From: Escherichia phage EF1-1
Direction: 5' to 3' (one strand)
Length of the DNA: 64,000 nucleotides
Sequence record: PQ571289
The notes under the pieces were generated by a model. It did no database searches and was not told the origin of the DNA. It worked only from the letters and a program-made list of their open reading frames with translations. Positions 26,553 through 27,537 of this stretch are shown one piece after another; the stretch's first letter is position 1, and each line of letters opens with the position of its first letter. The position numbers were made by a program, and so were the translations under genes.

Positions 26553-26825
26553 CTAACACATTGAGGAAGAAGAGATCCAAACACCTCTTGTGGTTAAACC
26601 ATTTTCATCCAACTCTACACCATAATCTTCACAAATGAAATCAATATAGTGATCTGCGGCTGGCGTTCCTGTAGGGTAATAAGTTTCTCCGTTACCGTAG
26701 TCACCTATCCAAGCTTGTTCCTGAAACTGTTCACAAAGTTCTTCAATCTCCTTACGAAACTTTCTTTGTGCTTGTTCCATCTCTTTAACTTTCTTTTTTA
26801 TCAGCAGTTCGCCTTCAGACTCCAC
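26553..26825 (-). CDS. small acidic protein, paralog family C (C-terminal W.SSS.C)
   Basis: AAGGAGA RBS; ends GVWISSSSMC. Confidence 0.55.
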   Translation of the reverse strand: MESEGELLIKKKVKEMEQAQRKFRKEIEELCEQFQEQAWIGDYGNGETYYPTGTPAADHYIDFICEDYGVELDENGLTTRGVWISSSSMC

Positions 26826-26834
26826 AATCTCTCC

Positions 26835-27053
26835 TTAACAGCTACTACTGTGCCAAACGCCTTGAGAATTAACGACGAAACCATCATCACCTTCACCATA
26901 ACAAGAAGAGGATTGCCAATCTTCAAAACAGATTGCGTCATTTTCTAAACTAAGACCAAAACCAGCATCTTCAGCTTCTTTTGTAAGTTCGTCCACTAAA
27001 GCCATAATAGCTTGGGCTTTTTCAGTTAATTCTTCAACATTACGATCACTCAT
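26835..27053 (-). CDS. small acidic protein, paralog family C
   Basis: GAGGAG RBS at internal ATG; ends GVWHSSSC. Confidence 0.5.
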   Translation of the reverse strand: MSDRNVEELTEKAQAIMALVDELTKEAEDAGFGLSLENDAICFEDWQSSSCYGEGDDGFVVNSQGVWHSSSC

Positions 27054-27328
27054 TAGTATTTCTCCTCTGGTTGGAAAACTGAACGACAAGCCCACATACT
27101 AGCTTCTTTTAAATGTTTAATAGCACAACGGATTTGATCAATACGTTCGTATGCAAAATCTAATTCTTTTTCTGTGCCGTCAAAAGACCCATGATATGCT
27201 TCACAATACTCTTCCTCTAAAGCTTTGAAGATTAAACCTAAACGCTCTTCTGCATCTTTAATAGCGTTAACCTTGCCAATCTTATCGTCAGTATGCGCCT
27301 TATAACCTTTGATATCTTCGATTCCCAC
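27053..27328 (-). CDS. hypothetical protein (91 aa, GTG start)
   Basis: TAGGAGG 4 nt upstream of GTG; first ATG lacks RBS. Confidence 0.45.
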   Translation of the reverse strand: MGIEDIKGYKAHTDDKIGKVNAIKDAEERLGLIFKALEEEYCEAYHGSFDGTEKELDFAYERIDQIRCAIKHLKEASMWACRSVFQPEEKY

Positions 27329-27339
27329 TTTACCTCCTA

Positions 27340-27537
27340 TTAACAACTTAAAGAAGATGGATGCCAATTTGTTCCAGTATTCTCATTTTCATCTTCTGGA
27401 TCATAATAACCACCCATCCCATATTCAGGGGAGAAACGGAAACCTTTACCAGTCTCATCTGCTAACTGCTCTGCTTCCGCTAAAGCCTCATAAGCTGCTT
27501 TTACGGCTTCTTCTACTGTTTTAAACTTGGTCGTCAT
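27340..27537 (-). CDS. small acidic protein, paralog family C
   Basis: GGAGAGGAG RBS; ends NWHPSSLSC. Confidence 0.5.
   Translation of the reverse strand: MTTKFKTVEEAVKAAYEALAEAEQLADETGKGFRFSPEYGMGGYYDPEDENENTGTNWHPSSLSC

Follow-up and report, generated by a model that had tools for sequence, protein, structure and literature searches.

The DNA analysed here, referred to as the window, is a stretch of 64,000 nucleotides (nt) from Escherichia phage EF1-1 (sequence record PQ571289). Between positions 26553 and 27537 it carries three small genes, here called A, B and D, whose acidic products all end in a short tag composed of a tryptophan, a pair of serines and a terminal cysteine. A fourth, unrelated open reading frame (ORF) interrupts this array, and the gene of a predicted nucleotidyltransferase follows it. 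The region is 99% identical to genomes of Phapecoctavirus (myoviruses of E. coli, about 150 kb in size), such as Mt1B1_P17 (NC_052662), in whose RefSeq record the same coding sequences, including A, B, D and the intervening ORF, are each annotated as "hypothetical protein". The comparisons presented below suggest that the enzyme and a variable array of tagged small proteins form a conserved two-part phage module, previously undescribed. The genes of the array region lie on the minus strand throughout, and the features concerned are given in order of transcription, with protein lengths in amino acids (aa).

27340-27537, minus strand: gene D, an acidic tagged protein of 65 aa (YGMGG...WHPSSLSC-COOH), transcribed first in the array
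27343-27366, minus strand: C-terminal tag of D, W-H-P-S-S-L-S-C, with a W-to-C spacing of 7, read from the sequence
27053-27328, minus strand: Acb2 (T4 Vs.4) homolog of 91 aa by its match to PF24729, outside the tagged family
26835-27053, minus strand: gene B, an acidic tagged protein of 72 aa that ends in W-H-S-S-S-C and also contains W-Q-S-S-S-C-Y-G-E internally
26838-26855, minus strand: C-terminal tag of B, W-H-S-S-S-C, with a W-to-C spacing of 5, read from the sequence
26553-26825, minus strand: gene A, an acidic tagged protein of 90 aa (GDYGNGETYYP...GVWISSSSMC-COOH), transcribed last in the array
26556-26579, minus strand: C-terminal tag of A, W-I-S-S-S-S-M-C, with a W-to-C spacing of 7, read from the sequence
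26527-26544, minus strand: intrinsic-terminator-like hairpin (AACCCGCTTCGGCGGGTT, then a T run), directly after gene A
26493-26521, minus strand: sigma-70-like promoter, TTGACA-17 nt-TAAACT with TG, a consensus match only, preceding the nucleotidyltransferase gene
25521-26462, minus strand: partner gene, encoding a 313-aa DUF7277-DUF7275 protein (phrog_2141), predicted to be a Pol-beta-fold nucleotidyltransferase

The first-pass annotation, made from the sequence alone, had singled out A, B and D as tandem paralogs of small acidic proteins with a shared ending, and the endings GVWISSSSMC (A), GVWHSSSC (B) and NWHPSSLSC (D) were recovered exactly as it had given them, positions included. Among the 671 ORFs of the window (stop to stop, at least 40 aa), an ending of this type occurs in only these three, which are neighbours. 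A fourth occurrence of the motif, at 10126-10308 on the minus strand, reads WHCTSSC followed by two further residues and was judged from its DNA context to be an unlikely family member. The same annotation had missed the partner enzyme gene at 25521-26462, the Acb2 identity of the intervening ORF and the internal W-Q-S-S-S-C of gene B.

Every one of the three small genes is preceded by a Shine-Dalgarno sequence; gene A starts with GTG behind AAGGAG, and the 72 aa of gene B are counted from the ATG at MSDRN, the mechanical ORF extending to 27095. The description of the products as acidic agrees with isoelectric points (pI) of 4.40 (A), 4.05 (B) and 4.31 (D) and net charges of -10, -13 and -8. 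Their supposed helical N-terminal half is borne out for A, whose AlphaFold2 (AF2) model, with a predicted local distance difference test score (pLDDT) of 95.3, has an N-terminal helix at residues 4-34; for B and D a helical N-terminal half is inferred from homology only. In the monomer model of A the tag lies within the fold (strand 82-85 and a short turn, pLDDT of about 90) and is not a free tail.

Pairwise BLASTP among A, B and D was unconvincing (E = 0.013, 0.64 and no match). Their status as three diverged paralogs is instead supported by profiles and intermediate sequences. The phrog_899 hidden Markov model (HMM) matches A (E = 5.1e-14), B (E = 1.4e-5) and D (E = 1.2e-12), in each case at the C-terminal end of the profile, and single-linkage BLAST clustering of 201 tagged proteins stripped of their last 10 residues placed all three within one cluster of 186. 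The family HMM built here also matches D (E = 3e-12). No match to the small proteins was found in Pfam, NCBIfam, PADLOC or the PDB, none of A, B and D matched the PF24729 Acb2_Tad1_hairpin model at E <= 1, and a literature search found nothing on DUF7275 or phrog_899. Identity with Sequestin (PF21825) or Lockin was rejected, there being no Pfam match and the model showing a helix with a small sheet, as opposed to a beta-rich hexameric cog. Identity with lanthipeptides or other precursors of ribosomally synthesised and post-translationally modified peptides (RiPPs) was rejected as well, since no such domains occur in the neighbours and the protein is predicted with high confidence to be folded.

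A, B and D belong to a large phage-specific superfamily of small acidic alpha/beta proteins. Profile searches of clusters at 50% identity returned 85 cluster representatives with a word-indexed method and 323 with an exhaustive one, giving a family of at least 323 clusters. Nearly all representatives are 65-125 aa long, the profile match reaches the last residue, the median pI is 4.4, and the predicted fold is a long N-terminal helix with a small sheet of three strands, the Trp lying on the last of them. Profile matches to two large proteins, P0111 and P0130, were discarded as probably spurious, arising from repeats (Gly-rich in P0111; NHL-like G-S-x-G-x-G-x-G-Q-F-x-x-P in P0130). There are hints that the YG-x-G-x-T-Y-Y-P hairpin of the profile is a common beta-hairpin motif.

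The proposal that the C-terminal Cys is conserved in a Ser-rich context holds well beyond the window. In an alignment of 59 diverse homologs the only invariant columns are W83, S86, S87 and C90, with Y43, G44, G46 and Y49 near-invariant, and the tag ends 128 of the 139 further cluster representatives that were newly listed. The annotation would have been undermined by lack of conservation of the motif in related phages, and the motif proved to be conserved far beyond them. Aligned from the C-terminus, the consensus is W-x-[S/A/P]-S-S-(0 or 2 residues)-C, and the Cys is the final residue in 193 of 198 distinct tagged ORFs. It stands two residues past the Ser pair in 140 of the 193 (spacing 7) and directly after it in 44 (spacing 5). 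Among the tagged genes every one of the six Ser codons occurs at this end, as do both codons for Cys and each of the three stops, and the variety of Ser codons shows that selection acts at the protein level.

The W-x-S-S unit also behaves as a module, judging from its distribution within the proteins: 60 of 400 members contain additional W-x-[S/N]-S units internally, as against 4.6 +/- 2.2 with shuffled bodies. The internal W-Q-S-S-S-C of gene B (FEDWQSSSCYGE) is one of these units and is kept in a B-type orthologous subfamily of T4-like phages (loci L135 1548-1772, L169 2692-2922 and L176 3102-3326). The arrays of other phages also hold larger tagged proteins of 140-190 aa that the family HMM missed. 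At locus L203 (2458-3030) the tag ends a mechanical ORF of 190 aa (172 aa from an internal Met) with an N-terminal WYL_2 domain (PF10902, E = 3e-8), and at L221, from Acinetobacter phage DLP1, one array member ends in ...WSNSES, without the Cys.

The product of the partner gene matches the Pfam models DUF7277 (52.5 bits) and DUF7275 (254.2 bits; cut-off 27), as do all 47 aligned homologs. G5-S6, D26-x-D28 and E70 are invariant, and conservation is dense in the helical domain (H115, H123, K126, R152, H183-D184, H187 and CTSITSGWFRE). The structural model (pLDDT 91.8) comes closest to MenT1/3/4, LnuA (7.4) and ANT(2'') (6.9) and also resembles other nucleotidyltransferases of the Pol-beta fold, and the features by which the Pol-beta superfamily is recognised, namely the nucleotidyltransferase core fold, hG[GS], Dx[DE] and a third carboxylate, are all present. 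The 313-aa protein is therefore predicted to be a Pol-beta-fold nucleotidyltransferase with an intact catalytic signature. It has no sequence-level match to any nucleotidyltransferase Pfam family or any PDB chain, which makes its family a distant and distinct member of the superfamily. RlaP, the RNA-ligase-associated nucleotidyltransferase, was considered and rejected because of the motif spacing and because the enzyme matches no other nucleotidyltransferase Pfam model. The median pI in the enzyme family is 5.6, atypical in our view for a dedicated RNA binder. The family exceeds that of the tagged proteins in size and breadth. With 2209 clusters at 90% identity, it was found in 722 phage records, including Gordonia and Streptomyces phages, and among 185,579 prokaryotic genomes there were 7 matches, all in metagenome-assembled genomes; the family is essentially phage-only.

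Tagged genes and enzyme genes are linked across phage groups. In the Mosigvirus p000v, three tagged paralogs (locus L002 3995-4300, 4310-4582 and 4592-4789) lie upstream of a 318-aa enzyme homolog that likewise carries DUF7277 and DUF7275. Linkage was examined from both sides. For the small proteins, IMG/VR was scanned with a degenerate DNA pattern that represented nothing but the small protein, about 40% of the hits being true members; 48 loci with a family member were used, comprising 44 from the scan together with the window, p000v and two metagenome contigs. A DUF7275 gene lies downstream on the same strand in 40 of these 48 (gap -175 to 1007 nt), and the other eight end less than 1 kb downstream, so that informative co-occurrence is 40 of 40. 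For the enzyme, one or more tagged ORFs lie upstream of its gene and on its strand in 72 of 80 IMG/VR loci, with two to six of them in 60. The numbers of loci with none to six tagged ORFs are 8, 12, 21, 14, 4, 20 and 1, respectively. Over these 80 loci the tag ends 218 of 1416 ORFs upstream of the enzyme gene and 5 of 4092 other ORFs, at least four of the five lying just downstream of the enzyme gene. Such downstream tagged ORFs were seen at L183 (5106-5537), L192 (4867-5187), L207 (5107-5367) and L204 (5220-5471), with endings such as ...GWQPSAQSC and ...CPWISSSESC. The linkage spans Phapecoctavirus, T4-like Mosigvirus, Karamvirus, Lazarusvirus, Acinetobacter phages, jumbo contigs of about 350 kb and small contigs of 20-60 kb, and contigs with linked loci range from about 20 kb to 370 kb.

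The association runs in one direction. The complete 165.5-kb genome of CC31 (NC_014662) encodes the enzyme (CC31p140) with its GS...DxD motif, and neither a tagged ORF nor a family-HMM match turned up anywhere in the genome. In the region concerned (L215 17713-20111; NC_014662 67713-70111), a cluster of eight tRNA genes lies upstream of the enzyme gene, beyond one 113-aa ORF, and close relatives of CC31 have a tagged gene just upstream of the enzyme, where CC31 has the tRNA cluster. Gordonia phage Abscondus and Streptomyces phage Beuffert also have the enzyme and no tagged genes within flanks of about 4 kb. In these two actinophages (L219 4693-5606 and L220 4582-5274, respectively) a shorter DUF7275-type enzyme is followed by two tandem paralogs downstream, and not preceded by them, with the common motif F-x-[KR]-x-G-[WY]-[WY/Y]-x-S-[WY]-...-[WY]-D-G-...-E-E-V-x-P, which may represent an analogous partner family. 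The converse, a tagged gene without the enzyme, was seen in none of the 40 informative loci. Because the enzyme occurs without tagged genes and tagged genes were never seen without the enzyme, the small proteins look dependent on the enzyme and not vice versa.

The ORF that interrupts the array (27053-27328) had been called unrelated to the tagged genes, and it proved to encode a protein of the Acb2/Tad1-hairpin type, scoring 60.8 bits with PF24729 (E = 1.5e-16), for which the cut-off is 27. The protein aligns collinearly with T4 Vs.4 and has blocks of sequence in common with it at both termini (jackhmmer E = 1e-63 to 1e-68). T4 Vs.4 is the prototype of Acb2, the sponge that counters cyclic-oligonucleotide-based antiphage signalling systems (CBASS), and at the level of sequence the ORF qualifies as a bona fide homolog of this anti-CBASS family. 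In the sequence TAATG the stop codon of the ORF overlaps with the start codon of gene B. At locus L128, from a related phage whose enzyme is 78% identical, D, B, A and the enzyme gene are contiguous and Acb2 is absent, from which it follows that Acb2 was inserted into the array in the lineage of the window; anti-defence genes seem to use the array as a site of insertion. T4 itself was also searched, Vs.4 being flanked there by small genes: Vs.3 and Vs.5 fall outside the tagged family, and the 60-78 kb region contains no tagged genes and no enzyme.

The remaining neighbours, again in order of transcription, are the following.

28292-28897, minus strand: DprA-like/SLOG gene, first in transcription order
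27790-28302, minus strand: 170-aa ORF (phrog_8569), two genes upstream of the array
27521-27811, minus strand: 96-aa ORF
25124-25537, minus strand: phrog_16551 protein of 137 aa, whose ORF overlaps that of the enzyme at its end

The leftward gene block (window; L001 3452-6132) includes a Sir2-like protein, DNA methyltransferases, a NinI-like phosphatase, the DprA-like/SLOG protein and phrog_16551, making this a neighbourhood in which accessory or candidate counter-defence genes abound. The phrog_8569 ORF ends in ...EEVLWQSSDQ, a W-x-S-S ending without the terminal Cys, and its homolog at L129 ends in ...DQGGW; on these endings, the resemblance could be coincidence or a decayed tag.

It is proposed here, tentatively and as a possibility that falls short of being probable, that the tag is an acceptor or docking element for the enzyme, most simply through O-nucleotidylation of the Ser pair. 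Each small protein would engage the neighbouring nucleotidyltransferase through its tag; the invariant Ser pair, which starts a short C-terminal helical turn, would be O-nucleotidylated or given a phosphodiester-linked group, and the terminal Cys would also be required, as a second determinant. On this view one enzyme would mature a whole set of clients or effectors, namely the variable acidic bodies, plausibly early host-takeover or anti-defence factors. We infer in this way a physical interaction, a covalent modification, its acceptor residue and a biological role. A hydroxyl acceptor is suggested by the structural neighbours of the enzyme, which transfer a nucleoside monophosphate to hydroxyl groups, the tRNA 3'-OH in the case of MenT1/3/4 and antibiotic hydroxyls in the case of LnuA and ANT(2''). 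The near-obligate nucleotidyltransferase neighbourhood and the extra internal W-x-S-S copies give indirect support to the modification site that the first-pass annotation had suggested for the motif, next to a metal-binding site, and a role of the small proteins as clients is suggested by the many tagged genes per enzyme, the internal repeats of the unit and the one-way dependence. Several such genes beside one enzyme gene is the usual layout of loci encoding substrates and their modifying enzyme, and related members of the superfamily modify partner proteins or small acidic carrier proteins.

Several observations weigh against this proposal. Because the tag is folded in the AF2 monomer, its conservation could be largely structural, as far as the model goes. 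The terminator-like hairpin and the promoter-like site part gene A from the enzyme gene, which starts 91 nt downstream, so that array and enzyme gene appear to be separate transcription units in the window phage and are not strictly co-transcribed; in other phages, unrelated ORFs lie between the tagged genes and the enzyme. The spacing between the Ser pair and the Cys varies (0 or 2 residues), which is odd for a single catalytic geometry. Finally, eight of the 80 enzyme-seeded loci have no strict upstream tag, L200 having a variant tag and L204 a downstream tagged ORF.

More doubtful is the wider scenario of a widespread, phage-only maturation system in which the enzyme recognises the tag and acts on the changeable small acidic proteins, either nucleotidylating them covalently or priming on them an oligonucleotide or a prosthetic group, and thereby yielding nucleotide-bearing effectors used early in infection. 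Were it true, these effectors might be, for example, decoys or inhibitors of host nucleotide-based immunity, which would fit the presence of Acb2 within the array.

The small proteins might alternatively be non-covalent regulators or inhibitors of the nucleotidyltransferase, similar to antitoxins (compare MenA1-MenT1), with the body or the tag blocking the active site until the enzyme is needed. The resemblance of the enzyme to MenT speaks for such a role, which is nevertheless unlikely. A single enzyme gene can have as many as six different tagged genes beside it, which is unexpected for an antitoxin, and CC31 and the two actinophages (the latter as far as their flanks were covered) keep an apparently intact enzyme without tagged partners; an asymmetric dependence of this kind is the pattern expected for clients that require an enzyme and not for an antitoxin needed by its toxin. 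There is also no translational coupling between the two components, given the terminator and promoter here and the unrelated ORFs in between elsewhere. No enzyme homolog matches the AbiEii/DUF1814 Pfam model, and the identified carriers, namely isolates and relatives of the T4-like or jumbo kind, are virulent-type phages with no obvious use for an addiction module.

Likewise improbable is that the small proteins act independently of the enzyme, for instance as sponges, as mimics of nucleic acids or by inhibiting immune or housekeeping proteins of the host, the tag being a structural cap or a metal-binding or oligomerisation site (thiolate and carboxylate of the terminal Cys) and the synteny reflecting a common island of accessory genes. 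Such a role would suit small, very acidic, fast-evolving early-region genes (A-type identity is 46% where that of the enzyme is 70%), the insertion of an anti-CBASS gene within the array, the nearby DNA methyltransferase and Sir2-like genes and the inclusion of the tag in the predicted fold, and known sponges are likewise under 100 aa and oligomeric (10.1101/2025.07.12.664507). Synteny alone, however, leaves unexplained why the two occur together in 40 of 40 loci and in 72 of 80, with fixed order and strand in unrelated phage groups, and why tagged genes were never seen without the enzyme. The small proteins match neither Acb2/Tad1 nor Sequestin (PF21825), nor any Pfam, PADLOC or PDB entry. 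Moreover, the nucleotide-binding pockets of sponges are positively charged (10.1101/2025.07.12.664507), and a median pI of 4.4 is atypical of such pockets.

Much less likely still is a thiol chemistry resembling that of RiPPs, in which the Ser would be nucleotidylated and eliminated and the terminal Cys would add to form a lanthionine-type ring, or in which the Cys would serve as a carrier thiol. The common register places Ser three and four residues before a strictly terminal Cys, a distance that matches typical lanthionine ring sizes, and multiple precursor-like genes stand beside one enzyme. Against this, no LanB, LanM, LanKC, LanD-type, radical-SAM or protease/exporter gene occurs in the neighbourhoods examined, the proteins are predicted to be well folded and not to be leader-core peptides, and in the W-x-S-S-S-C register the spacing between Ser and Cys is too short for the same ring. 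To our knowledge, no Pol-beta nucleotidyltransferase drives such chemistry. That the motif is a product of chance, for which nothing speaks except its shortness, or a side effect of some signal in the DNA or RNA where the genes end, can be dismissed, given three adjacent ORFs out of 671, hundreds of tagged homologs, the use of six Ser codons and the differing sequences downstream.

Both components belong to families of unknown function that are present in therapeutic and model phage groups, the carriers including T4-like and phAPEC8-like phages and Acinetobacter and Aeromonas myoviruses. Should the tag prove to serve nucleotidylation or docking, the module would constitute a new route of protein modification in phage biology and would provide both a portable recognition tag and a role for hundreds of "hypothetical" early genes. 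Should it serve neither purpose, the family would still offer a clearly bounded group of candidates for host takeover or anti-defence, encoded beside a bona fide Acb2 gene. The strict linkage, the sharply defined tag and the intact catalytic signature make the hypothesis directly testable.

Among known systems, the toxin-antitoxin pairs of the MenAT/AbiE type (MenT1-MenA1, MenT3/TglT-TakA, AbiEii) have toxins that, in the case of MenT, add nucleotides to the 3' ends of tRNA, MenT1 being blocked by a short antitoxin (PMC10435456). The window enzyme differs in lying outside PF08843 (AbiEii/DUF1814), to which none of its 47 homologs had a match at E <= 5, and in belonging to an essentially phage-only family. 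It also has up to six partners with a common C-terminal tag, and these are dispensable in some genomes, such as that of CC31.

The sponges Acb2/Vs.4, Tad1, Tad2, Sequestin and Lockin resemble the tagged proteins in being small, phage-encoded and located in accessory regions. Phages also encode MNT-like nucleotidyltransferases that make competitor cyclic dinucleotides (Ho et al., bioRxiv 10.1101/2022.06.09.495361), and these share with the window enzyme a phage-encoded Pol-beta-superfamily fold and a position among anti-defence genes. Their catalytic motif is GS-x-AY[GAN]T-x4-SDxD (10.1101/2022.06.09.495361). The window enzyme reads MVLIGSRALQIHAMDMGKDLYRPCVDLDYL, with 19 residues between GS and DLD (G5-S6 and D26-L-D28), and carries a large DUF7275 helical domain; it was therefore rejected as a member and assigned to a different family.

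Different proteins that carry one short C-terminal motif beside a single conserved enzyme recall another class of systems. Pairs of a C-terminal tag and an enzyme include sortase with LPXTG and exosortase with PEP-CTERM, and RiPP loci may have multiple precursors. Here the partner has a nucleotidyltransferase fold and is not a protease or cyclase, and the tagged proteins are cytoplasmic, folded and acidic, with no export or cleavage machinery.

Protein modifiers within the Pol-beta superfamily include MNT-HEPN, in which the partner is AMPylated, and GlnE/GlnD, and CitX/MdcG act on small acidic acyl-carrier proteins, a Ser of which receives a prosthetic group through a phosphodiester link. Neither the small proteins nor the enzyme matched the CitD/CitX or MdcC/MdcG families in Pfam or NCBIfam, and neither component has detectable sequence similarity to any of these systems. 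The window module differs further in having its putative acceptor in a C-terminal tag, many paralogous clients per enzyme and a phage setting. What it has in common with them is a superfamily enzyme together with a small, acidic and largely helical partner that offers an invariant hydroxyl residue, and this likeness, a functional analogy only, provides the working analogy for the favoured mechanism, in which the enzyme would act on the Ser pair of the tag.

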